A DNA stretch of 64,000 bases, taken from the NCBI GenBank assembly GCA_041946735.1, contig JBHGAY010000005.1, forward strand, positions 32,001 through 96,000, in the 5' to 3' direction. This document shows positions 1,187 to 26,565 of this stretch, in pieces (within the stretch, counting starts at the first letter, position 1; the number at the start of each line of letters is the position of its first letter). The notes under the pieces are model-generated. The model ran no database searches. It was not told the origin of the DNA and saw nothing but the letters and a program-made list of their open reading frames with translations. The stretch is from Candidatus Eiseniibacteriota bacterium. Lineage in GTDB: Bacteria; Eisenbacteria; RBG-16-71-46; CAIMUX01; VGJL01. The position numbers and the translations under genes are program-made.

Positions 1187-3040
1187 TCAGCGCTCGAGGA
1201 CGAGGAGCCTCGTGAAGGCGCTTCTGCCCTCTTCCGACGTGAATCGGAGGAGATAGATCCCGTTTGCCAGACGCCGCGACGGAAGGATCGCCTCCCCCGC
1301 TCCCGAATCGCGGCCGCTGTCCGCGATACGCGCCGATCCGACAAGCCGGCCGGCGGGATCGAGGATGTCCACCTTTCCGCCGTTTCCCGGAAGCCCGCTC
1401 AGCCGCAGAGGTCCGCCGAGGTACGGGTTCGGCGAGACGCGGATCGAGAACGCGGCGGGAGAGGAGAGGTCCGCCTCGCCGACCGCCGCCGGATCGAGCA
1501 CGCCGCAGAAGCAACCGTGGTTCTCGATATCGCGGCGGATCTTCGGCCAGTCCATCCTCGCCTCGGGATCGACCGAGCTGCCGTCGACCTCGAACACGTA
1601 GACCCGGCCGTGGCCGTTCATGTCGGATCCGGCGGTCGTCACGTCCCAATCGCCATCGCTGTCGAAGTCGGCGATGTGGGTGCTGCAATGCGAGTTCAGG
1701 TCGCTCGGATTGTACAGGTTCTTCGGGAACCCGGTCAGGACCGTGCCGTCGAGGTTCATCGCGGTGAGCCACTGCTGCGACGACGCCCAGTAGGTGAAGA
1801 AGATCTCCTGGGTCCCGTCGTCGTCGACGTCCCCGACCGAGACCGAAGAGATCGGCTGGGCCGCCGCGGTCGTCCGCGGGTAGCCGGGAAGCTCGTTGCC
1901 GTCGGGATGCAGGATGTGGAGCTTGCCGTCCCCGGTGAGCGTGATGATCTCGAGCGTCCCGTCGCCCTCGAGGTCGGCGACCGCGGGCCCCGAGCGAGAG
2001 GACTGCCCTTCGACGGCGATGTTCCGCGGCCATCCCGTCATCACCGTCCCGTCGTGGTGCCAGACCCACAACTGATGCCCCTGCGACCCCGGATCCCCCT
2101 CCTGGGCGATGATCTCGAGGTCTCCATCGCCGTCGAGATCCGCGAGCGCCGGCGAGGAATAGACCGGCCGGATCACCTTCGGCCAGCCGGGCATCGAGGT
2201 GCCGTTGGCCCGGATCAGGTGCACGCCCCAGTTCGGGTAGCAGACGTTGCCGACGGCGACCTCGAGATCGCCGTCCTCGTCCACGTCCCCGATCGCCGGC
2301 GCAGACCATTGCGGGTTGTTGATCGGGACGGGCCAGGTGTAGGGCCACCCGGCGACCGCCGAGCCGTCCGGGTTGTAGAAGAAGACCCCGTTTTCCCCGG
2401 CGACGGCGACCTCGATCTCCGGATCCCCGTCGATGTTCGCGAGGACCGGGCAGGTGAGATTGGCGAGCTGCGTGTAGGGGATGTCCACCGGCCAGCCGGG
2501 CAGGGTATTGCCGAAGAAGTCGAAGAGCCAGAGCTTCGGCACCGGAAGGTTCGAGGTGATCGCGATCTCGGCCTCTCCGTCTCCGTCCAGGTCGCCGACC
2601 GCCGCGTGCTGCTGCGTCCCGTTGATCTGGACCGGCCATCCGGGAAGGAGAGCGCCCGAGGCGTCCCATACGTAGATGTAGCGGTCATCGGCGGCGACAA
2701 TCTCGGAGCTGCCGTCCCCGTCGAAGTCGTAGAAGACGGGAGTGGCGACGATCTCGCGCGTCGCCTGCGGCCAGCTACGCGGGCCGTCGAGAGCGTCGCG
2801 TAGGCCGTCGACGGCCTCGCGCGGGCCTTGACAAGCGACGCGGGCACGATCGAGATCGCCGGCGGCGCCGGGTTCTCCCGTGGCAGGCTGCCACCCAGCG
2901 GGATCAATCGCCAGACGGAGTCCGCCGGACGACGCGCTCTCGCCATCGAGCCGCCATGGTTCCGCATGGGAGGCGCTCGCGACGGGAGCCTGCAAGGCGA
3001 CGAGGGTCAGGACCGAGAGAAGAGCGAAAGCGAAGCGCAT
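1187..3040 (-). CDS. Secreted FG-GAP/VCBS repeat beta-propeller protein with C-terminal FlgD-Ig/T9SS-like domain
   Basis: Signal peptide; repeated DxDGDGxxEI and 'LPGWP' motifs; C-terminal 'SPNP...ILDPAGRLV...LANGIYLLR'. Confidence 0.85.
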   Translation of the reverse strand: MRFAFALLSVLTLVALQAPVASASHAEPWRLDGESASSGGLRLAIDPAGWQPATGEPGAAGDLDRARVACQGPREAVDGLRDALDGPRSWPQATREIVATPVFYDFDGDGSSEIVAADDRYIYVWDASGALLPGWPVQINGTQQHAAVGDLDGDGEAEIAITSNLPVPKLWLFDFFGNTLPGWPVDIPYTQLANLTCPVLANIDGDPEIEVAVAGENGVFFYNPDGSAVAGWPYTWPVPINNPQWSAPAIGDVDEDGDLEVAVGNVCYPNWGVHLIRANGTSMPGWPKVIRPVYSSPALADLDGDGDLEIIAQEGDPGSQGHQLWVWHHDGTVMTGWPRNIAVEGQSSRSGPAVADLEGDGTLEIITLTGDGKLHILHPDGNELPGYPRTTAAAQPISSVSVGDVDDDGTQEIFFTYWASSQQWLTAMNLDGTVLTGFPKNLYNPSDLNSHCSTHIADFDSDGDWDVTTAGSDMNGHGRVYVFEVDGSSVDPEARMDWPKIRRDIENHGCFCGVLDPAAVGEADLSSPAAFSIRVSPNPYLGGPLRLSGLPGNGGKVDILDPAGRLVGSARIADSGRDSGAGEAILPSRRLANGIYLLRFTSEEGRSAFTRLLVLER

Positions 3041-3200
3041 GGGGAACCTCCTGCGGATGTCGAGACGCGCTGTGCTGGGCTCATCATGAGTAGGTCGAAG
3101 AAATCCGGTGTTGAATCATAAGGGATTCGGGTGGCAGTATCAAGCCGCTGCCCTTTGAGGCGCACCTTGGTTCTCGGGGAAGCGAGGGGAGGGAGGGAAG

Positions 3201-3584
3201 ATGCGCTACCGATGGCATCTCGGCTACGTCGCGTGGATCCTGAACCGCGTGAGCGGGCTCGCGATCACCTTCTATCTTGTCATCCATATCTGGGTCATCC
3301 ACCACCTCTCGAAAGGTCCGGAAGGGTTCGAGAAGGTCATGGGGATGGTCCAGACGCCTTTGTTCAAGCTCGGAGAGATCGCGCTGCTCGGGGCGATCCT
3401 CTACCACGCTATGAACGGGATCCGCGTGCTCCTCGTGGAATGGGGACAGGGGTATCTCGTGCAGCGCCGGCTGTTCTGGTACGTCATGGCGGCGGGAGTC
3501 GTGCTGTTCGTCTTCGGCGCCTATCCGATCCTCATCTCCGCGATGTCGGGCGGCGTGCGCCAGATCGGGGAGGTGGTGCGATGA
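3201..3584 (+). CDS. sdhC: Succinate dehydrogenase cytochrome b subunit
   Basis: Three TM helices, 'NRVSG', 'HAMNGIR' heme-ligand motif; first gene of sdh operon. Confidence 0.9.
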   Translation: MRYRWHLGYVAWILNRVSGLAITFYLVIHIWVIHHLSKGPEGFEKVMGMVQTPLFKLGEIALLGAILYHAMNGIRVLLVEWGQGYLVQRRLFWYVMAAGVVLFVFGAYPILISAMSGGVRQIGEVVR

Positions 3585-3979
3585 GCGCGATTCGAGGCCT
3601 GAGGTCCGGCGGCTTCGCCGGCTGGTTCCTGCAGCGCATCACCGGCGTCCTGCTCGTGCCGTTCGTCCTGCTGCACGTCTGGGTCACGCACTTCAGCTTC
3701 GCCAACGGCTATCACCAGCAAGAGGTCACCTACCAGATGGTCGCGCAGCGCCTCGCGAGCCCCTGGTGGAAGCTGATCGACCTGGCGCTGCTCGCGATCG
3801 TTCTCTACCACGGCCTTCGCGGCACGTGGGTGATCGTGCAAGAGGGGATCCAGCGGCCCTGGCTCCGCGTCTCGCTCTACTGCGCGATCCTCGTTCTCGG
3901 CGCCGCCCTCGCGGTGCTCGGGACCGTGACGATCCTGCCGTTTCGGGCCCCGTCCGGCCTGACGACGCAGGCGTTCTAG
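3581..3979 (+). CDS. sdhD: Succinate dehydrogenase hydrophobic anchor subunit
   Basis: ATG overlaps sdhC stop (ATGA); 'WFLQRITG', 'YHGLRG' motifs. Confidence 0.88.
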
Positions 3980-6558: not shown

Positions 6559-7428
6559 ATGCCGATGCAGCCGATTTCCGTCCCGCAGGCCGAGGCGCAA
6601 GGCGCCTCGCGCCGTGGCACCCGATCCCGCCGCCTCCTGAAGGAGATTCTGGTCGTCGTCGCGTGCCTCATCGCGGTCACCTCGGCGATCGAGCTGGCCG
6701 GCTGGGACCTCGCGCTGTCCCGGGCGTTCTACGATCCCGCCGCGAACCCGGCCTGGTGGGGACGCGAACGCCAGCCGCTCCAGTTCCTCTACGACTACGG
6801 CACGTGGCCGGCGCTTGCCGTCGGGATCGGCTCGCTCTTTCTCCTTCCCGCGACATGGTTCGTGCGGCGCTTGCGTCCCCACCGGAGGAGCTTCGCGCTC
6901 TTAGCCCTCGTCCTCGCTCTCGGTCCCGGACTGGTCGTCAACACCGCGCTCAAGGATCACTGGGGACGGCCGCGTCCGCGCGAGCTGCGCGAGTTCGGCG
7001 GCACTGCCGCATACCAGGGGGTCGAGGATCCTGGCACTCCCGGTAAGGGGAAGGCGTTCCCGAGCGGACATGCGTCCATGGGGTTCTACTTCGTGAGCTT
7101 CTACATTCTGTGGCGCGACGACGCCGCACGACGCGACCGCGCGGCGGGGCGGCGCGCGAGCGCGAGAGCGACGGCGGCTGCGACGGCGAGAGCGCAGGTC
7201 AAGGCGCGGGCGAGCGCGAGGGCGAGAGCGGCTTTGGCCTTCGGGATCCTGGCGGGCTGCGCCATCGGCCTACAGCGGATCGCCTCCGGCGGGCACTTCC
7301 TCACCGACGTGCTGTGGGCCGGCGGGATCGTCTATCTCGTGGCGCTGCTCGTGGACTTCGCGCTGCCCGCTACTCCGGAGCTCCGGCGTCGACCCAATCC
7401 CGGAACAGCGCTCGCTCGTCCTCGGTGA
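6559..7428 (+). CDS. PAP2-family membrane phosphatase
   Basis: 'KDHWGRPRP', 'FPSGH', 'RIASGGHFLTDV' PAP2 motifs; start approximate. Confidence 0.85.
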   Translation: MPMQPISVPQAEAQGASRRGTRSRRLLKEILVVVACLIAVTSAIELAGWDLALSRAFYDPAANPAWWGRERQPLQFLYDYGTWPALAVGIGSLFLLPATWFVRRLRPHRRSFALLALVLALGPGLVVNTALKDHWGRPRPRELREFGGTAAYQGVEDPGTPGKGKAFPSGHASMGFYFVSFYILWRDDAARRDRAAGRRASARATAAATARAQVKARASARARAALAFGILAGCAIGLQRIASGGHFLTDVLWAGGIVYLVALLVDFALPATPELRRRPNPGTALARPR

Positions 7429-7783
7429 GTCCTCCGCCGGGCGGCATCGCCCGCTGCTCCCAAACCTTCAGGCGGATCGCCGACCGGCGCGCATAGGCGC
7501 GGGCGTAGGTGTCGAGCGGCACCTGGGGATACATGATCCCGCCCGGTTGATGGCAGCTGCAGCTGCGCTCCATTACAGGGTGGACCTGCTCGGTGAAGGT
7601 CACGTCCCCGCCGTTGGGGTCCGGTTCCCCGTCGCCGGGCGGGGCGGTCAGCTTCTTCCCGCCATCCGCGCCGCACCCGGCAAGGCAGAGGACGAGTGCC
7701 GCGGCCGCGGTAGCGGCGATCGCCGCTGCCGAAGCCATCCGGCCGCGTGGACGCCGGCAACGCTCTCCTCCTGGCTGTCGCAT
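7370..7783 (-). CDS. Lipoprotein with small c-type cytochrome-like domain (CXCH motif)
   Basis: Lipobox 'LCLAGC'; 'VTFTEQVHPVMERSCSCHQPGG...MPP...DWVDAGAP' resembles small monoheme cytochrome c domains; start uncertain. Confidence 0.65.
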   Translation of the reverse strand: MRQPGGERCRRPRGRMASAAAIAATAAAALVLCLAGCGADGGKKLTAPPGDGEPDPNGGDVTFTEQVHPVMERSCSCHQPGGIMYPQVPLDTYARAYARRSAIRLKVWEQRAMPPGGGLTEDERALFRDWVDAGAPE

Positions 7784-7828
7784 GCGCTGTCCCTTCCCTC
7801 GCACGCCTCTCTCTCGCGCTCCGCGCCG

Positions 7829-9019
7829 TCAGAACGACAGATAGAGCATTGCGATGAGATCGAAGACGTCGTGGTTCTCTCCGTAGCGCCGTCGCCCCTC
7901 GTCGTCGAAGCCGTAGATGCGCGTTCCCCGCGCGTAGGCTTCGAGACGCAGGAGCGGCAAGAGGTCCGATTCGATGCCGGCCGAGACGCGGTCGCGTCCC
8001 GTCTCGGCGAGGTCGAGATCGGGATCGAAGCGGTCGTATTTCGCGGTGAGGCTGATCGACGGGCGGATCTCATACCATCCCTGCACGAAGCCCGCCTCTC
8101 CGTCCACCGACGAGCCGTGGTCCGGATCGTTGGTCAGACGGTCGTACTCCGCGAGCAGGACCACCGGGCCCCGGTGAAGCTGTCCGAAGGCGCCGTAGCG
8201 GTACGTCCTGCCCCTCTCGCCGGTGTTCAGGCGGCCCGTATCGAAGAAGCCGGAGGCGCCGAAGCCGATCCAGTCGCGGAACCAGGCAGCGCGCCCGGTC
8301 ACCGCCTTCTGGTCGTTGTCATCGAACCCGGGCAGGCCGAGTCGCCCGTTCGTCAGCGCGAGATCGACTTGCACGTTCCGCGGAGTGAAGGTGACGGCCG
8401 CGCCCGTGTCGTACGCATTCGGGCCGAACCCCAGGGAGTCGCGCGTGAAGGTGCTGTGGTCTTCGACCTCGAGACCGAACGCCGGCTTGAACCGTCCCAC
8501 CTTGAGGCTGGCGGACAGCGGCAGCGAGCGGATCAGGCCGTAGGTCTCCGCGACCGCGCCCTGGTCGTTCGAGTAGACGAGGGTGAGACGGTCGTTGAGG
8601 TCGGCCGCCACATGGACCGTCGCCTCCATCAGGAAGAAGGAGGACCGGTCGGACGGCAACTGGTCTTCGGATTGCAGGTAGACCGAGCGCACGTCGGCGC
8701 CGAACCGCAGGCCGTCCGCGATGCGAGGATCGAGGACAGGCTCGCGTTCCTCCGCGGGCGTAATCGTGTGGCCGTTCCATGCGTAGAGGAAGCCCGTTTG
8801 TGCGCGAACCCCGCCGCCCGCCGGGTCGACGTGACAGCGGCCGCACGCCATTCCGGTCCGCGTCGCGTAGAGCGGCCGCGCCGAGGCGCGAGAGGCTCCG
8901 AGGAGCGCGAGCGCGGAGACGATGATGGCGAGCGCGATCGGGATCGGGATCGCGAGCGGAATCGCGAGCGGAATCTCCCGGGGGCCTCGCGAAGACTTCA
9001 CGGCTTCTCTCGCTCTCAC
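7829..9019 (-). CDS. Cyc2-like monoheme cytochrome c-porin fusion (outer membrane)
   Basis: Signal peptide followed by 'ARPLYATRTGMACGRCH'; remainder has alternating beta-strand character and ends in Phe (LYLSF); GTG start overlaps upstream stop. Confidence 0.7.
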   Translation of the reverse strand: MRAREAVKSSRGPREIPLAIPLAIPIPIALAIIVSALALLGASRASARPLYATRTGMACGRCHVDPAGGGVRAQTGFLYAWNGHTITPAEEREPVLDPRIADGLRFGADVRSVYLQSEDQLPSDRSSFFLMEATVHVAADLNDRLTLVYSNDQGAVAETYGLIRSLPLSASLKVGRFKPAFGLEVEDHSTFTRDSLGFGPNAYDTGAAVTFTPRNVQVDLALTNGRLGLPGFDDNDQKAVTGRAAWFRDWIGFGASGFFDTGRLNTGERGRTYRYGAFGQLHRGPVVLLAEYDRLTNDPDHGSSVDGEAGFVQGWYEIRPSISLTAKYDRFDPDLDLAETGRDRVSAGIESDLLPLLRLEAYARGTRIYGFDDEGRRRYGENHDVFDLIAMLYLSF

Positions 9020-9423
9020 TTGCGGAAGACGGCGTGGCAGCCGGCGCAGGAGCTGACCGTCTCGCCGAGGAGCCGCCCGGCGCTCTCGCCGTTCTTCGCC
9101 GAGGCCGCGACGGCGAGCCGGCCGGCGCGGGCGCCGAGCGAATCGGCGTGGGCCTGGAAGTCCGCGATCTGATCGGTGCGCGTCGGCGGCGTCAGCGTGC
9201 GGACCATCTTCGCTTGCGCCGCGATCGACCTCGCGCTCGCCTCGGCCTTCGCCCAGTCGCTCGCGACGATCGATCCCATCGTGACGCGCAGGTCGCGGTT
9301 CAAGCCCTCCATCGCCTTCTCGAACGCGCTCTTGTTGTACGCCCCCTGGCCGGAAACGGCGCCGGCGGCGAGCACGACGGCGACCGCCACGGCGGCCGCG
9401 AGTAGGAAACGGAACTTCTTCAT
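9016..9423 (-). CDS. Cytochrome c' / class II cytochrome c
   Basis: Signal peptide, helical composition, C-terminal 'SCAGCHAVFRK' CxxCH. Confidence 0.85.
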   Translation of the reverse strand: MKKFRFLLAAAVAVAVVLAAGAVSGQGAYNKSAFEKAMEGLNRDLRVTMGSIVASDWAKAEASARSIAAQAKMVRTLTPPTRTDQIADFQAHADSLGARAGRLAVAASAKNGESAGRLLGETVSSCAGCHAVFRK

Positions 9424-9881
9424 CGCAGCACGACCTCTCCTTCCTCGTCCTTGAACCTATAGACGGCGATCAGGACCAGGAGGCACGAGAAGAGAATCCC
9501 GCTCACGAAACCTCCGCCCGCCGCAAAGGTGAGGAAGCGGAAGGTGGGGGAGACGTAGATGACGGCCCACCACGAGAGGACGTCGAGGATGCCCACGATC
9601 ACGGTCACGCCAAGGATCGTCCCGAACGCCTTGCCTCGTGCCGCGCCGAGGCGGCGGCCGAGGGTGTAGAGGACGAACCCCATCGTCGAGTAGCCGAAGA
9701 GGTGCACGTGCGTGATCACGAGCAGCCTGCCGATGTTGATGAAGGAGAAGTACTCCCCCACGCTCGGGTTGGCGATGCGCGTCTGGTAGAAGACCAGCGA
9801 GGTGCCTGCGACGGCGGCGAGACCGATCCCGAACAGGATCGGTATCGCCAGGAATCTCTCTCTCTGCGCGTTCCCTTGCAT
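9420..9881 (-). CDS. Integral membrane protein (about 4 TM) with 'THVHLFG' His motif
   Basis: Hydrophobic segments; stop overlaps the cytochrome c' ATG; start approximate. Confidence 0.7.
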   Translation of the reverse strand: MQGNAQRERFLAIPILFGIGLAAVAGTSLVFYQTRIANPSVGEYFSFINIGRLLVITHVHLFGYSTMGFVLYTLGRRLGAARGKAFGTILGVTVIVGILDVLSWWAVIYVSPTFRFLTFAAGGGFVSGILFSCLLVLIAVYRFKDEEGEVVLR

Positions 9882-10023
9882 GCTTCCCCGCTCTCTCCTC
9901 GTGCTCCGCATGTCAGTCCTGAAAATCGCCACGATCCCCTCTTCGCCGGCCTGACGTCAACAGGATCGGTCGCCGCGGGTGTGGCTCTGATACGATCCAT
10001 CGTGCCTTTCCGGGGAGGGCGCA

Positions 10024-11118
10024 ATGCGGATCGCGATCATCAGTTCGTGGCCCAGGGACCCCGTGCGCGGGAGCGGGACCGGCCGCTACCTCATCGATCT
10101 GGAGGCGGCTCTCCGGCGCGCGGGCGCAACGGTCCTTGCCATCGGCGCCGATCTCGACCTGTCCGACTACGCCTCGTTCGTCGCCCGTCGAATGGAATGG
10201 AACGCCGCGCTTCCCGGCGACACGCGTGCGTGTTCGGCGGACATCCTTTTGGCGATCGACTTCGACGGCTTCGCCCTTCCGTCCGGCCGGGACGGGTTTC
10301 CTCCCAAAGTCGTCTCCCCGCAGGGACTGTTCGCGGAGATCGCTCCGACCGAGCCCGAGCCGTTCCGGTCTCTCCTTCTCGAGCAGGCGCGAGCCGAGAG
10401 GCGCAACGTGGCGGACGCCGCGCTCCTGATCGTCCCGAGCGCCTACGCGGCGGAGGCGGTGCAGCGCCACTACGAAGCGGGTGCGGAGCGGATCGAGATC
10501 ATCCCACACGGCTTCGATCTCGCGGAATGGCAGGAGCTGCTCCAGGGCGCTGATGCCCGTGCGCGGGACAAAGGCCCCACGATCCTCTCGGTCGCGCGCC
10601 TCTATCCGCGCAAGGGGATCGACACGCTTCTTCGCGCTTTCGCGGGCCTGCCGGCGCGGCATGCGGCGGCGCGGCTCCGAATCGTTGGAGACGGGATCGA
10701 GGCGCCACGGCTTCGCCGCCTCGCTGTCGATCTCGGACTCGAGGCGGGCGATCGCGTGCGCTTCGAGGGGGAGATCCCGACGCGGGCCGGTCTCGCCCAC
10801 CTGTTCCGCCAGGCCGATCTGTTCTGCCTGCCGTCGCTGCAGGAGAGCTTCGGGTTCGTGTTCCTCGAGGCGATGGCCGCGGGACTTCCCGTGGTGGCGG
10901 CCAGAGCCGGCGCTGCCGGGGAGGTGCTCGGCGAGGCGGGAACGCTGGTCGCGCCCGGTTCGGCCGAGGACCTGACGAGGGCGCTCGCGCGCCTGCTCGA
11001 CGACTCGGCGGAACGCACCCGGCTGGGCGAGCAGGGACGGCGGCGCGCGTCGCGCTTTCATTGGGAGGCCGCGGCGGCCGCCTACCTCGCCCGATTCGAG
11101 AGAGTCCTCGGCTCGTGA
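10024..11118 (+). CDS. Glycosyltransferase family 4
   Basis: 'ARLYPRKG', 'ESFGFVFLEAMAAGLPVV' GT4 motifs. Confidence 0.9.
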   Translation: MRIAIISSWPRDPVRGSGTGRYLIDLEAALRRAGATVLAIGADLDLSDYASFVARRMEWNAALPGDTRACSADILLAIDFDGFALPSGRDGFPPKVVSPQGLFAEIAPTEPEPFRSLLLEQARAERRNVADAALLIVPSAYAAEAVQRHYEAGAERIEIIPHGFDLAEWQELLQGADARARDKGPTILSVARLYPRKGIDTLLRAFAGLPARHAAARLRIVGDGIEAPRLRRLAVDLGLEAGDRVRFEGEIPTRAGLAHLFRQADLFCLPSLQESFGFVFLEAMAAGLPVVAARAGAAGEVLGEAGTLVAPGSAEDLTRALARLLDDSAERTRLGEQGRRRASRFHWEAAAAAYLARFERVLGS

Positions 11119-11143
11119 GGCGCACGCTCGATCGAGATCCCGC

Positions 11144-11173
11144 TTGACGATCCTCCCGCACTTTCCGTATTTT
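11144..11173 (+). promoter_or_regulatory. Putative sigma70 promoter for the micro-protein/ArsR/FmdB locus
   Basis: TTGACG-N18-TATTTT upstream of ATG 11211. Confidence 0.5.
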
Positions 11174-11210
11174 CCAAGAAATGCGCAACACCAAGCGCTG
11201 GAGAGGCGAG

Positions 11211-11435
11211 ATGCTGACGTTCCTTCTGTTCCTCGTGGGGTACTTCGTCCTCACCTGGCTGGTCCTACCCCGTCTCGGAGTGCCGACCTGAGGCTCGCCT
11301 CTGGCCGGCCGCTCCGGTGGAGCGGCATGCAGCACCGAGAAGACCAGCCCCAAGGAGACGGCGGACCGGCCTGCGCTGCAGGTGCCGCCGGCCTCGAGCG
11401 CCGGCGACGCTGGGACGGCCGAAGGCCGGCGCTGA
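11211..11435 (+). CDS. Putative single-TM selenoprotein micro-protein (UGA read-through at 11289-11291)
   Basis: RBS GGAGAGG; MLTFLLFLVGYFVLTWLVLPRLGVPT-UGA-GSPLAGRSGGAACSTEK...; SECIS-like hairpin at 11308-11326. Confidence 0.6.
11308..11326 (+). promoter_or_regulatory. Bacterial SECIS-like hairpin
   Basis: GCCGCTCC-GGT-GGAGCGGC, perfect 8-bp stem, loop starts 25 nt after UGA. Confidence 0.55.
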
Positions 11436-11448
11436 AGGTCCAGCGGGG

Positions 11449-11793
11449 ATGAAGGCGGCGAAGGACTTCGCGGAGGCCGCCCGCCTGCTGAAGCTGCTCG
11501 GGCATCCGGCGCGGCTCAAGGTCGTGTGCGGGCTCCTCGGAGAGCCCGCGAGCCTATCGCGCATCTCGCGCGAGATCGGCGTGCCCGTCTCGACGCTGGC
11601 GCAGCATCTCTCGGTGCTGCGACGGGAGGGGATCCTGGAGGAGGAGAGGCGCGGGGTGGAGATCTTCTTCCGCGTGGCGGACCAGCGTGTGCCGGGGATT
11701 CTTCTGGCCCTCTGCGCTGCCGGTCCGTCCGGGCGGGGGCGCAGCCCAGGCGCTTCGCTCCCACGATGGAAGTGGCGCGAGCTGCACGGGTAG
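11449..11793 (+). CDS. ArsR/SmtB family regulator, BigR/SqrR-like two-Cys pattern
   Basis: 'LGHPARLKVVCGL...STLAQHLSVLRREGIL...RRGVEIFFRV...LLALC'. Confidence 0.85.
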   Translation: MKAAKDFAEAARLLKLLGHPARLKVVCGLLGEPASLSRISREIGVPVSTLAQHLSVLRREGILEEERRGVEIFFRVADQRVPGILLALCAAGPSGRGRSPGASLPRWKWRELHG

Positions 11794-11872
11794 GGAGCGA
11801 GGAAGGTCCTCCCGAGCGCGTGACGCCATCGCGCTCTTGGCCGCCAACTGCAAACATGAGGAGTCCGAGTCG

Positions 11873-12088
11873 ATGCCGTGGTACGAGTATGTCTGCCCGA
11901 GCTGCGGCGAGCGCTTCGATCTGATGCGCTCGATCGCCGATCGCGACAAGTCCGCTGCCTGTCCTGCCTGTGGAACGGAAGCGAAGCGGGCGCTGCCCCA
12001 CGTCCAGGCGGTCATCGCCGGGGGCGGAGCCGGCGCGCCGCCCAGCTGCGGAGCGAGTGGCGGTGGCTGAGGAGTGCCGCGCAGGTAG
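11873..12088 (+). CDS. FmdB-family zinc ribbon protein, putative C-terminal selenocysteine (UGA 12068-12070; ends at 12070 if no read-through)
   Basis: RBS GAGGAG; MPWYEYVCPSCGERF...CPACG; tail SCGASGGG-UGA-GVPRR-TAG; SECIS-like hairpin at 12085-12103. Confidence 0.75.
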
Positions 12089-23664: not shown

Positions 23665-25398
23665 GTGCCTGCAAAGCCTAAAAAAGCGACCGAGCAGCTG
23701 GATGTCTTCCTCGGGGTCGAGGAAGCGACGCCGAAGCGTCGAAAGACGGCCTCTCCGTCCACGGACGGAGGGAAGACGGCGGGAAAGGCAGCCCCGGCCG
23801 CGGAGACCCCTCTGCCGATCCGTACAGCGGCAGAACTGGCGATGCGGCAGCGGGATATTTCGGTCAGCGAGTTCTTCGCGAAGAACCGCCATCTGCTCGG
23901 GTTCGACAATCCGTCCAAGGCGCTGCTGACGACGGTACGGGAGGCGGTTGACAATTCCCTGGACGCGTGCGAGGAGGCCCGTATCCTGCCCGACCTGCGC
24001 GTGGAGATCCTGCCCGCCGGCGAGGACAGGTACCGGGTGATCGTACAGGACAACGGGCCGGGAATCGTTCGTACGCAGGTGCCGAAGATCTTCGGACAGC
24101 TCCTCTACGGGTCGAAGTTTCACACACTTAAGCAGTCCCGAGGGCAGCAGGGGATCGGGATCTCGGCCGCCGGAATGTACGGGATGCTCACGAGCGGCCG
24201 GCCGATGGCGATCATGACCCGGACCGGCCCCAAGCACCCGGCCCACTATCTCGAGCTTCGGATCGACACCCAGCGAAACCGTCCGGAGATCCTCGTGGAC
24301 CGGGAGGAGTCCTGGGAAGCGCCTCACGGCACGCGCGTGGAGATCACCCTTGCGGGGACGTACAAGCGCGGCCGCCACTCGGTCGACGGCTATCTCCGCC
24401 AGGTGGCGATCGCCAATCCCCATGCCCGGATCGTCTACCTCCCTCCCCAGACCGACGGCCCGGCGGAGCCGGTGACGTTCGAGCGGGTGAGCGGGAAGCT
24501 TCCGGACGAGCCGAAGGAAATCCGTCCGCATCCATACGGGGTCGAGCTTGGGGTGCTGATGCGGATGTTGAAGGGGAGCGACGCGAGGACCGTGCAGTCC
24601 TTCCTGCAAGGGGAGTTCTCGCGTGTCTCGCTACGAGTGGCGAGCGAGATCGCCCACCGCGCCCAGGTCGACGTGCACGCGCGGCCAGGCCGCCTGCCGC
24701 TCGAGGCGGGCGAGCGCCTGCACAAGGCGATGAACGAGGTCAAGCTGCTCGCCCCGCCGACGAACTGCATCGTTCCGATCGGCGAGGAACTGCTGCGGCG
24801 CGCTCTCGAGCAGGAGGTGGAGGCGGAGTTCACGACGGTCGTGAGCCGCCCGCCGACCGTCTATCGAGGCAATCCGTTCCTGATCGAGGCGGGAATCGCC
24901 TGGGGGGCCGACCTGCCGGCCGACGAGCCGATCACGCTCTACCGCTACGCGAACCGTGTGCCGTTGCTCTACCAACGGTCGGCCTGCGCGATGACGAAGG
25001 CCACGATCGCCGTCGATTGGCGGAAGTACCAGATCCAGCAGCCGAAAGGGGCGCTTCCGGTGGGTCCCGCGATCCTGCTCGTCCATATCGCCTCCGCCTG
25101 GGTGCCGTTCACGTCGGAGAGCAAGGAGGCGATCGCGCACTATCCGGAGATTCTGAAGGAGATCCGGCTCGCGCTGCAGGAATGCGGGCGACAGGTCGCG
25201 CTCCACATCAACCGGAGGCGCCGGGAGCACGAGGAGGGGAAGAAGCGCTCCTACATCCAGCGCTACATCCCCCACATCGGGATCGCCCTGCAACAGATCC
25301 TGGCCCTCGACGAGAAGGCGCGGGAGAAGACCGTTTCGACGCTCACGAACGTTCTCGAGCAGAGCCGGACGAAGGCCGGCGGGGGCGCGGAGGAGTAG
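23665..25398 (+). CDS. top6B: DNA topoisomerase VI subunit B
   Basis: 'ISVSEFFAKNRHLLGF', GHKL motifs 'EAVDNSLDA', 'DNGPG', 'SRGQQGIG'; 'RYANRVPLLY', 'VPFTSESKEAI'. Confidence 0.96.
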   Translation: MPAKPKKATEQLDVFLGVEEATPKRRKTASPSTDGGKTAGKAAPAAETPLPIRTAAELAMRQRDISVSEFFAKNRHLLGFDNPSKALLTTVREAVDNSLDACEEARILPDLRVEILPAGEDRYRVIVQDNGPGIVRTQVPKIFGQLLYGSKFHTLKQSRGQQGIGISAAGMYGMLTSGRPMAIMTRTGPKHPAHYLELRIDTQRNRPEILVDREESWEAPHGTRVEITLAGTYKRGRHSVDGYLRQVAIANPHARIVYLPPQTDGPAEPVTFERVSGKLPDEPKEIRPHPYGVELGVLMRMLKGSDARTVQSFLQGEFSRVSLRVASEIAHRAQVDVHARPGRLPLEAGERLHKAMNEVKLLAPPTNCIVPIGEELLRRALEQEVEAEFTTVVSRPPTVYRGNPFLIEAGIAWGADLPADEPITLYRYANRVPLLYQRSACAMTKATIAVDWRKYQIQQPKGALPVGPAILLVHIASAWVPFTSESKEAIAHYPEILKEIRLALQECGRQVALHINRRRREHEEGKKRSYIQRYIPHIGIALQQILALDEKAREKTVSTLTNVLEQSRTKAGGGAEE

Positions 25399-25401
25399 GC
25401 A

Positions 25402-26565
25402 ATGGCGAAGGAGAAGGAGAAGGAGAAGGAGAAGGAGAGGAAGGTGCAGGTCCGCGAGAGGAACCGCGCGCTCGACGAGAAGACCGTCTCTCTGATCCGC
25501 TCGACCGCGTCGGACATCTACACGCGGATCGGGAAGCGGCAGAAGCCGGAGCTCAAATTCCCCGTGCGCTCGCTCGGCAACGTCTCGTACTCGCAGAAGA
25601 AGGGGTTCCTCGAAATCGGCCGCCAGAGGAAGGTGCGCACGCTCACGGTGAACACGGTGAAGACGTTCGCGCAGACGCTCCGGATGATGGCGCTCTCGAA
25701 GGATCTGATCGAGACGAACGATTTCGCGACGAAGAGGGATGCGTACTACCAGTCGAAGAACTGGGGCGACGCGATGTTCCACGACCAGGTCGAGTCGGAC
25801 ACCGTGATGGACGATATCGAGGCGCTCTTCTCGCAGAGCGAGATCAACCGCGAGCAGCTTCGTTTCATTCCGGACGAGCACGGAGGTGCGGTCGCGGGGG
25901 AGCTGATCGTCCTCGATCCCGATCTCGAAACCGGCGTCGTCGAACGGATCGATTGCACACGTTTCGGCAGCGGCGCCTATTCGATCCCGTCCTCGGTGGA
26001 GCAGCTCGGTTTCGAGACGGGCGCACAGTTCATTCTCGCGATCGAGACCGGCGGTATGTTCCAGAGGCTGCAGAATCACAAGTTCTGGAAGACCGCGAAC
26101 TGCATCCTCGTTTCGATGGGCGGGGTGCCGACGCGCGCGACGCGCCGCTTCATCCGGCGTCTTTCGGACGAGCGGAAGATCCCGGTGTATGCGTTCGTCG
26201 ACTGCGATCCGTATGGGATCTCGAACATCTACCGGACGCTCAAGGTCGGGTCGGGGAACGCCGCGCACATCAACCAGTTCTTCTCCGTGCCGCAGGCCCG
26301 CTTCCTCGGTGTGACGCCGAAGGACATCGAGGAGTACAAGCTGCCGACCCATCCGTTGAAGGAGGTCGACATCAAGCGCGCGAAGGACGCGATCAAGAAC
26401 GATCCATTCTTTCAACGGCACAAGGATTGGAGCGGCGCGATCGAGAAGCTCGTGAAGATGGGGGTTCGCGCCGAGCAGCAGGCGCTGGCGAAATGGGGAC
26501 TGAACTACGTGATCGAGGAATACCTTCCGGCGAAGCTCGCGCACCCGGAACGTTTCCTTCCGTGA
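25402..26565 (+). CDS. top6A: DNA topoisomerase VI subunit A (Spo11-like)
   Basis: 'TKRDAYY' catalytic Tyr, 'LAIETGGMF', TOPRIM 'DCDPYG', 'RAEQQAL'. Confidence 0.95.
   Translation: MAKEKEKEKEKERKVQVRERNRALDEKTVSLIRSTASDIYTRIGKRQKPELKFPVRSLGNVSYSQKKGFLEIGRQRKVRTLTVNTVKTFAQTLRMMALSKDLIETNDFATKRDAYYQSKNWGDAMFHDQVESDTVMDDIEALFSQSEINREQLRFIPDEHGGAVAGELIVLDPDLETGVVERIDCTRFGSGAYSIPSSVEQLGFETGAQFILAIETGGMFQRLQNHKFWKTANCILVSMGGVPTRATRRFIRRLSDERKIPVYAFVDCDPYGISNIYRTLKVGSGNAAHINQFFSVPQARFLGVTPKDIEEYKLPTHPLKEVDIKRAKDAIKNDPFFQRHKDWSGAIEKLVKMGVRAEQQALAKWGLNYVIEEYLPAKLAHPERFLP

Follow-up and report, generated by a model that had tools for sequence, protein, structure and literature searches.

Background

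Cyc2-type heme-porins, in which a single CXXCH site and an outer-membrane barrel are fused in one polypeptide chain, are the main genetic marker by which microbial Fe(II) oxidation is inferred from metagenomes. Cyc2 is described by Keffer et al. 2021 as having a signal peptide, one CXXCH, a 16-strand porin, the motif AXPXFAR[Q/K][T/Y] upstream of the heme site and the motif PXL downstream, four residues after CXXCH; the upstream motif is called 'unique to Cyc2' and serves as a screen, and OprP and OprO are reported as structural templates for the protein (PMC8406198). The canonical rus operon has the composition cyc2-cyc1-cup-coxBACD-rus (PMC10654088), and the natural periplasmic partners of Cyc2-type proteins have been described as unidentified (PMC13692758). 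We describe here an operon of four minus-strand genes (7370-9932) from a stretch of 64,000 nucleotides (nt) with 68% GC, hereafter the window, which belongs to contig JBHGAY010000005.1 of a Candidatus Eiseniibacteriota genome assembly (GCA_041946735.1). Its genes encode, in order, an inner-membrane protein with four transmembrane segments (4-TM protein) of the family Aq_1264_TM, a periplasmic class II c-type cytochrome, an outer-membrane monoheme cytochrome-porin fusion and an accessory lipoprotein.

The explanation that we prefer, to which we assign a probability of roughly 45%, is that the barrel protein is a Cyc2-like outer-membrane redox pore for which the co-encoded class II cytochrome acts as electron partner and the Aq_1264_TM protein as membrane-side partner. 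This set of partners differs from the Cyc1, rusticyanin and cox proteins, or alternative complex III (ACIII), that accompany Cyc2, as an initial annotation of the operon made from the DNA letters had already anticipated in calling it unlike canonical Cyc2 loci, and comparison with the rus operon bears this out.

An outer-membrane barrel with a single heme motif

The barrel gene (7829-9019, minus strand) specifies 396 amino acids (aa) if translation begins at GTG 9019 and 390 aa if it begins at GTG 9001. The product has a signal peptide ending in ASA, a mature N-terminus RPLYATRTGMACGRCH (8878-8831) in which CGRCH occupies residues 53-57 of the public 390-aa model P0001, and a predicted 16-strand barrel that ends in YLSF. 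A word-indexed search in which 8000 candidates were scored yielded 14 close homologues at E<=1e-3, namely P0001 itself and 13 others at 47-53% identity; the alignment of all 14 shows no variation at C53, C56, H57 or the terminal Phe. The initial annotation had read a signal peptide, CGRCH and a barrel ending in Phe from the translation, and had named a predicted barrel and the conservation of CxxCH as checks; each of these expectations has been confirmed. Covalent attachment of a heme at this motif would be expected.

The AlphaFold2 model calculated from the 14-sequence alignment has a mean predicted local distance difference test score (pLDDT) of 68.9, a predicted TM-score (pTM) of 0.69 and 16 long strands within residues 98-389, and the ESM Atlas holds a model of its own with a pTM of 0.81. 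In a Foldseek search of the PDB, 270 matches reached E<=1e-3, and all among the matches listed are porins of 16-18 strands, the best being the chitoporin 5mdq (E 3.9e-13). The highest template-modelling score (TMq) among the matches listed is that of OprP (2o4v, 0.58), and OprO (4rjw) reaches 0.57. OprP, OprO and the 16-strand porins ChiP, OmpT and PorB thus share the barrel fold (E 4e-13 to 1e-9, TMq 0.50-0.58), but they have neither a heme site nor an N-terminal cytochrome segment, and they are 8-16% identical to the window barrel. At the level of sequence, the barrel profile drew noise only from the sequences of solved structures (for example RecA and filamin), and scans of the protein with Pfam and NCBIfam models found no family, BBP2 standing below its cutoff at E 0.006.

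A large family without a name

A profile built from the 14 close homologues was compared with 1.84 billion cluster representatives and matched 2113 of them at E<=1e-3, 790 at <=1e-10 and 195 at <=1e-30. Among the 150 representatives listed CxxCH is found in 145, the 5 exceptions (286-339 aa) beginning inside the barrel region. Full-length members number 136 of the 150 and measure 340-433 aa, with a median of 378; exactly one CxxCH is present in 133 of these, at residues 23-58. Of the 136 chains, 68 end in F, 36 in Y and 21 in L. The family has the signature A(106)-[LE]-P(128)-[RY]-[FYL]-[AS]-x-[RK]-[TYE]-G-x-x-C-x-x-C-H-V-[ND]-P-[TS]-G-G-G-x-R(135), where the numbers in parentheses are counts out of n=137. 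Sequences of the Eisenbacteria-type clade, to which the window protein belongs, share about 50% identity with one another and 22-33% with the remaining members of the family.

No Pfam or NCBIfam model covers these proteins: scans of 80 of the 136 full-length members gave sub-threshold porin matches only (BBP2 4, LbtU porin 3, OMP_b-brl 2, Porin_O_P 2, Porin_4 1). The ESM Atlas clusters nearest to the barrel have no Pfam family in common, and their commonest phyla are Krumholzibacteriota, Gemmatimonadota, Bacteroidota and Pseudomonadota. Public names were obtained for two of the ten family clusters looked up, and both read 'hypothetical protein'. Searches of plasmids by tblastn gave a single chance match with the window barrel (Nocardia, E 0.9) and none with two distant family members, and they met no Cyc2 homologue. 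Judged by these sequence comparisons, the barrel protein is a member of a large, unnamed family.

Two side observations concern individual members. At position 387 of P0001 (about 7843-7841 in the window), three residues from the C-terminus, 91% of 137 family members have His; the window protein has Tyr there, and its close homologues have Ala or His. The public model of a related barrel protein, P0014 (339 aa), starts with M-A-C-S-R-C-H and is without a signal peptide and a pre-heme motif; the corresponding open reading frame (ORF; 6980-8107 of locus L004, introduced below) has an in-frame upstream ATG from which a 375-aa protein with a signal peptide can be read, and the start of P0014 has probably been miscalled in the public record.

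Likeness to Cyc2 and Cyt572

The likeness to Cyc2 (A. ferrooxidans Cyc2, Cyc2PV-1 and Cyc2TAG1_1) and to Leptospirillum Cyt572 is one of architecture. The window barrel shares with these proteins a signal peptide, a single N-terminal CxxCH located no more than about 12 residues into the mature protein, a predicted 16-strand barrel with an OprO/OprP-like fold and a similar length (390-396 aa, in a group for which at least 365 aa is the rule) and a pre-heme pattern of the form A-x-P-x-aromatic-A-..-basic-[T/Y]. The pre-heme motif in the window, A-R-P-L-Y-A-T-R-T, agrees with that of Cyc2 at A, P, the aromatic residue, A and T, while Thr replaces the Cyc2 Arg, a position occupied by A, T or M in the close homologues, and Arg replaces the Cyc2 Gln/Lys. 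The mature N-terminus of Cyt572 was determined by Edman degradation as YPGFARKYNF, following an A/ cleavage site (PMC13741234). It is paralleled in the window protein by RPLYATRTGMAC-x-x-CH, so that in both a signal-peptidase site is followed by x-P-x-aromatic-A. When the pattern is loosened to P.[FYW][AS].[RKQ][TY]xxxCxxCH, it is found in 12/14 close homologues and in 36/136 full-length family members.

Cyc2-like genes have been reported, by N-terminal similarity in a FeGenie-style survey, from metagenome-assembled genomes (MAGs) of Eisenbacteria, Krumholzibacteriota, Gemmatimonadota, Calditrichota and Bacteroidota (PMC9769843). That such reports concern the family described here is plausible though unproven. 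Since members of the family do not conform to the published motifs of Cyc2, and neither Pfam nor NCBIfam has a model for them, a large group of look-alikes might either be mislabelled as Cyc2 in surveys of this kind or be missed by them.

The periplasmic class II cytochrome

The second gene of the operon (9016-9423, minus strand) encodes a 135-aa protein that has a signal peptide; FEKAME is conserved in its helix 1 (9324-9307), and CAGCH (9048-9034) lies five residues from its C-terminus. The protein matches the Pfam family Cytochrom_C_2 (PF01322) with 33.8 bits against a cutoff of 26.5, and its designation as a periplasmic cytochrome c' in the initial annotation is upheld by this match, the signal peptide and the heme motif. 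It is 47-57% identical to the orthologues encoded in four related loci, and in the five sequences M38, C126, C129 and H130 are invariant, the Met in the context FE-x-x-M-E. The five-sequence profile, compared with the sequences of solved structures, finds cytochromes c' (1jaf, 1mqv, 1a7v and 4cx9, E 4e-5 to 1e-4, with 1jaf, 1mqv and 4cx9 at 4e-5 to 8e-5), and the matches to 1mqv and 1a7v span nearly the full length. Like the class II cytochromes c (c', c-556) and cytochrome b562, the protein is of the four-helix-bundle type, with a C-terminal CxxCH; it differs from the solved class II cytochromes in being distant from all of them and in the helix-1 Met that is invariant in its group. Full-length matches to cytochrome b562, weak and not significant (E 0.25-0.5), run from query residue 34 and chain residue 3, and in them the invariant Met would fall opposite the axial Met of b562. 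The protein may for this reason be a low-spin electron carrier with Met/His ligation instead of a five-coordinate cytochrome c' proper.

The family membership of this cytochrome invites an explanation of the operon in terms of nitric oxide (NO) or another small ligand, in which the cytochrome c' would bind NO or carbon monoxide (CO), the heme-porin would sense or detoxify a diffusible oxidant and the 4-TM protein would be their membrane partner. The best solved relatives of the cytochrome are indeed gas-binding cytochromes c' (1jaf, 1mqv/1a7v, 4cx9), the window is without pointers to iron respiration, and proteins of the cytochrome b561 type reportedly stand beside cycP in some Proteobacteria, a parallel to the 4-TM protein. 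We nevertheless regard this explanation as unlikely, given that the Met of helix 1 is invariant in 5/5 sequences and would suit an electron carrier, that the 4-TM protein is not a four-His protein of the b561 type, and that the heme-porin architecture is known from Fe(II) oxidases only.

The inner-membrane 4-TM protein

The first gene (9420-9881, minus strand) encodes 153 aa from ATG 9881, which is most likely its start and is that of the public model P0165, although the ORF is open to GTG 9932. The Pfam 38 family PF27139 (entry PF27139.1, Aq_1264_TM) is recorded for P0165 and for 14/22 homologue matches, an assignment that comes from precomputed records. The ESM Atlas clusters nearest to the protein, from Myxococcota, Bacteroidota, Campylobacterota and Calditrichota, consist to 89-100% of PF27139 members. 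Hydropathy indicates three strong hydrophobic segments and a weaker one that bears the motif THVHLFG (9713-9693). The residues H58, V59, H60, F62, G63 and D100 are invariant in 15/15 aligned homologues, including a relative at 33-35% identity. The four membrane segments and the motif noted in the initial annotation are confirmed. Lys and Arg residues are concentrated in loop 2 and at both termini, a distribution that by the positive-inside rule would place H58, H60 and D100 in that half of the membrane which faces the periplasm; a metal or heme site formed by these three residues is a plausible prediction. A tblastn search with this protein against plasmids gave no match, and no paper came up when the literature was searched in full text for 'Aq_1264'.

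The PCC3 and PCC4 porin-cytochrome clusters (He et al. 2017, PMC5566968) also include a small, conserved protein of unknown function in the inner membrane. Those clusters and the window operon have in common an outer-membrane barrel, one or more periplasmic cytochromes and a small inner-membrane protein, the last being proposed in PCC3/PCC4 as the inner-membrane link. They differ in that the porin and the multiheme cytochromes of PCC3/PCC4 are separate proteins whereas the window encodes a monoheme fusion, and in that the inner-membrane protein of PCC3/PCC4 has 5 transmembrane segments and two HX13H motifs, in contrast to four segments and a single HxH in the window protein. A complex of the MtrAB/PioAB type, made up of a 26-strand porin and a separate decaheme cytochrome, was also considered and is ruled out by the 16 strands and by the single heme site on the same chain; the ORF list contains no multiheme gene in the operon.

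Operon structure and conservation of the three-gene core

The operon consists of four consecutive minus-strand ORFs (9420-9881/9932, 9016-9423, 7829-9001/9019 and 7370-7738/7783/7804, the alternatives denoting different starts). Their G+C contents at third codon positions (GC3) are 0.80, 0.86, 0.94 and 0.87, which fits coding in DNA of 68% GC, and the long antisense ORFs across the region fail the GC3 filter. All four genes have homologues and are real, coding genes. The stop codon of the 4-TM gene overlaps the start of the cytochrome gene as ATGA, an arrangement that had been pointed out for the window and that recurs in locus L004. The TGA of the cytochrome gene overlaps GTG 9019 as GTGA; this second overlap of the initial annotation, 4 nt in length, holds only if the barrel protein starts at GTG 9019, and it becomes a gap of 14 nt with the start at GTG 9001 adopted in the public model. 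The lipoprotein gene follows the barrel gene by 24-90 nt, according to which of its three starts is used.

A genome scan for related barrel loci produced 56 pattern matches, of which 5 were confirmed, representing 4 distinct loci (L001-L004). Three of these come from Candidatus Eisenbacteria MAGs and one from an 'uncultured bacterium', and the comparison is one within a single lineage; to our knowledge Eisenbacteria are a candidate phylum without cultured members. The core of three genes for the 4-TM protein, the class II cytochrome and the barrel is present in 5/5 loci, the window included. By tblastn, the 4-TM gene is found in 4/4 related loci at 63-70% identity and the cytochrome gene likewise in 4/4, at 49-57% identity, and in all of them the two genes immediately precede the barrel gene in an unchanged order, which settles in the affirmative the question of a conserved neighbourhood for the first three genes. 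The junction between the 4-TM and cytochrome genes is a 4-nt overlap in the window and L004 and a gap of 1 nt in L003, of 1-7 nt in L002 and of 7 nt in L001; the gaps ahead of the barrel gene measure 9 to about 40 nt.

The accessory lipoprotein

The fourth gene (7370-7783, minus strand) encodes 137 aa from ATG 7783, or 122 aa in the public model, which begins at ATG 7738. The four genes and the first three products of the initial annotation are as it described them, and so is the lipobox LAGC (7684-7673) of the fourth; the heme motif ascribed to the lipoprotein is not CxxCH but CSCH (7561-7550), that is, C-x-C-H. Its relatives have CTCH and CGCH (L001 8339-8707 and L004 8143-8502), and C-x-C-H-Q-P-G-G-I ... 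M-P-P is invariant in 3/3 lipoproteins. By tblastn, homologues are found in L001 (E 1e-27) and L004 (E 5e-25) only, so that the gene is present in 3/5 loci; a homologue search with the lipoprotein returned the window's own protein only, and the relatives came from reading the loci.

Scans of the lipoprotein with Pfam and NCBIfam models assigned no family, PF13442 giving E 0.07-0.08 and 13.7-13.8 bits against a cutoff of 27. Among the sequences of solved structures the protein itself matched nothing and its profile matched through the signal-peptide region only. Its AlphaFold2 model is poor (pLDDT 52.9), and a fold search with it gave no significant match, the best being a cytochrome cz domain at E 4.4. 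A canonical class I cytochrome c is ruled out by CxCH in 3/3 sequences, the sub-cutoff PF13442 score and the lack of a fold match; the protein may be a degenerate domain of class I cytochrome c type that is one residue short between the cysteines. We know of no natural CxCH heme site, and no paper was found in a full-text search that combined 'CXCH' with terms for heme and cytochrome c maturation.

The lipoprotein gene is not behind the barrel gene in L002 or L003, and the lipoprotein is probably dispensable. At the corresponding place in L002 there is a 641-aa ORF (1982-3907, plus strand) inserted ahead of the PAP2 gene, and in L003 two large unrelated minus-strand ORFs of 388 and 582 aa (8468-11395) occupy the lipoprotein/PAP2 position.

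A possible route for electrons and the alternatives to it

We infer from the features described above that the operon may provide an electron conduit across the cell envelope. A small soluble redox-active solute, most plausibly Fe2+, would enter the pore of the barrel and exchange an electron with the barrel-held heme, as in Cyc2. The periplasmic class II cytochrome c encoded in the operon would next receive the electron from the barrel heme, and the Aq_1264_TM protein might be the inner-membrane partner in this scheme, serving as a dock, as an acceptor of electrons or metal, or as an assembly factor. The contacts between these proteins, the direction of electron flow, a cofactor in the 4-TM protein and the chain of hemes from the inner to the outer membrane that the initial annotation envisaged would all be parts of such a putative conduit.

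Several results weigh against this scheme. The strict motif PXFAR[Q/K][T/Y] occurs in 0/14 close homologues and 0/150 listed representatives, and PXL four residues past CxxCH occurs in 0/14 close homologues and 0/136 full-length members; the window clade has P-L-Y-A-[AT]-R-T in place of the former, and the window family has [VI]-[ND]-P-x-GGG-x-R in place of the latter. With both Cyc2 motifs absent, homology to Cyc2 is not demonstrated. The Cyc2-like start that had been claimed for the protein thus stands as regards architecture and a resembling pre-heme motif, and falls as regards the two defining motifs of Keffer et al. 2021, and we classify the barrel protein as a Cyc2-like cytochrome-porin of a separate family, membership in Cyc2 itself not being established. 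The heme segment, residues 33-80, has a pLDDT below 50 in the AlphaFold2 model, so that the position of a heme plug and the distal ligand are not assessable from it; M125 and H182, each conserved in 69% of 137 sequences, are candidates for that ligand. The partners raise difficulties of their own: cytochromes c' are classically gas-binding proteins (NO/CO) rather than electron carriers, the 4-TM protein, with only two invariant His, one residue apart, shows no redox cofactor motif of a known kind, and the lipoprotein is without a canonical heme site and is absent in 2/4 relatives. Nothing else in the window points to iron oxidation or to a terminal oxidase, and no other cytochrome genes were detected in it. 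Finally, the flanks of the operon are collinear as well: by tblastn, genes for a GT4 glycosyltransferase and an ArsR protein lie upstream in 3/4 related loci (L002 ends before their position), PAP2 lies downstream in 3/4 and SdhA downstream in 2/4.

Because the flanks are also conserved, gene order within this lineage is weak evidence of functional linkage, and the order may simply reflect collinearity. The genes might then be neighbours by inheritance, the heme-porin acting alone, for example as a channel with a structural or gating heme, and the cytochrome and 4-TM protein serving some other process. The barrel strands of the family do have conserved Arg, Glu and Asp residues (R105, R187, E202, E285 and R338), as in selective channels such as OprP. 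We hold this to be improbable all the same, in view of the 4-TM/cytochrome junctions, which have kept the ATGA overlap or a gap of <=7 nt in 4/4 loci, and of the three-gene core, which persists in L002 and L003 despite the replacement of the downstream flank in these two loci; the latter is the better argument for linkage.

The genes around the operon also bear on the direction in which a conduit might run. The rest of the window is of a housekeeping character (SdhCAB, fumarase, PFOR, TrpRS, topoisomerase VI, peptidases), and its PFOR, SdhCAB, fumarase and peptidases make up the core of a fermentative or respiratory heterotroph, in which electrons from the quinone pool or the periplasm might be delivered to a soluble extracellular acceptor by way of the class II cytochrome and the heme-porin. 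The structural evidence is the same for this outward flow as for the inward flow that we prefer, and a Cyc2 homologue with a low potential of -130 mV (PMC13692758) implies that heme-porins need not be high-potential oxidases. However, no characterised monoheme cytochrome-porin is known as a reductase and no quinol dehydrogenase is encoded in the operon, and we consider outward flow quite unlikely.

A wider interpretation, possible but doubtful, is that the barrel represents a second, superfamily-level branch of monoheme cytochrome-porin fusions, marked by the signature CxxCH-V-N-P-T-GGG-x-R and comprising at least about 2100 clusters at 50% identity in several phyla, with a dedicated conduit of Aq_1264_TM protein, class II cytochrome and heme-porin, at least in Eisenbacteria, that is independent of the Cyc2/Cyc1/oxidase route. 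If this were true, the accessory lipoprotein would bear a natural C-x-C-H site for heme or metal. Fused monoheme cytochrome-porins as such are already known; this partner set and this family signature are not described in the parts of the literature that our searches covered. The link to a specific periplasmic cytochrome and to PF27139 offers a concrete hypothesis of how single-heme porins might be wired to the cell, and it would give the Aq_1264_TM family its first functional lead.

Neighbouring genes and minor observations

The intergenic region 9882-10023, which separates the operon from the divergent GT4 glycosyltransferase gene (10024-11118, plus strand), is presumed to be the promoter region. 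Sigma-70-like promoter and intrinsic-terminator patterns were looked for in 7000-10400 and none was found, and an Rfam scan of the window found no RNA family. Next to the glycosyltransferase gene, and likewise divergent from the operon, is a gene for a helix-turn-helix (HTH) regulator of the ArsR/SmtB type (11317-11793, plus strand); both genes are kept in L001, L003 and L004. The proximity of a regulator of this metal-sensing type to a putative metal-redox operon may be relevant.

In L001 the SdhA of the window is matched in five partly overlapping tblastn pieces at about 10200-11920 (minus strand), where the ORFs are broken, which suggests a frameshifted gene and possibly assembly errors in that MAG. 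Topoisomerase VI is typical of archaea and uncommon in bacteria; in the window its subunits are encoded by adjacent genes (23665-26565, plus strand), one with the Topo-VIb transducer and HATPase domains and the other with the TOP6A/Spo11 Toprim domain.

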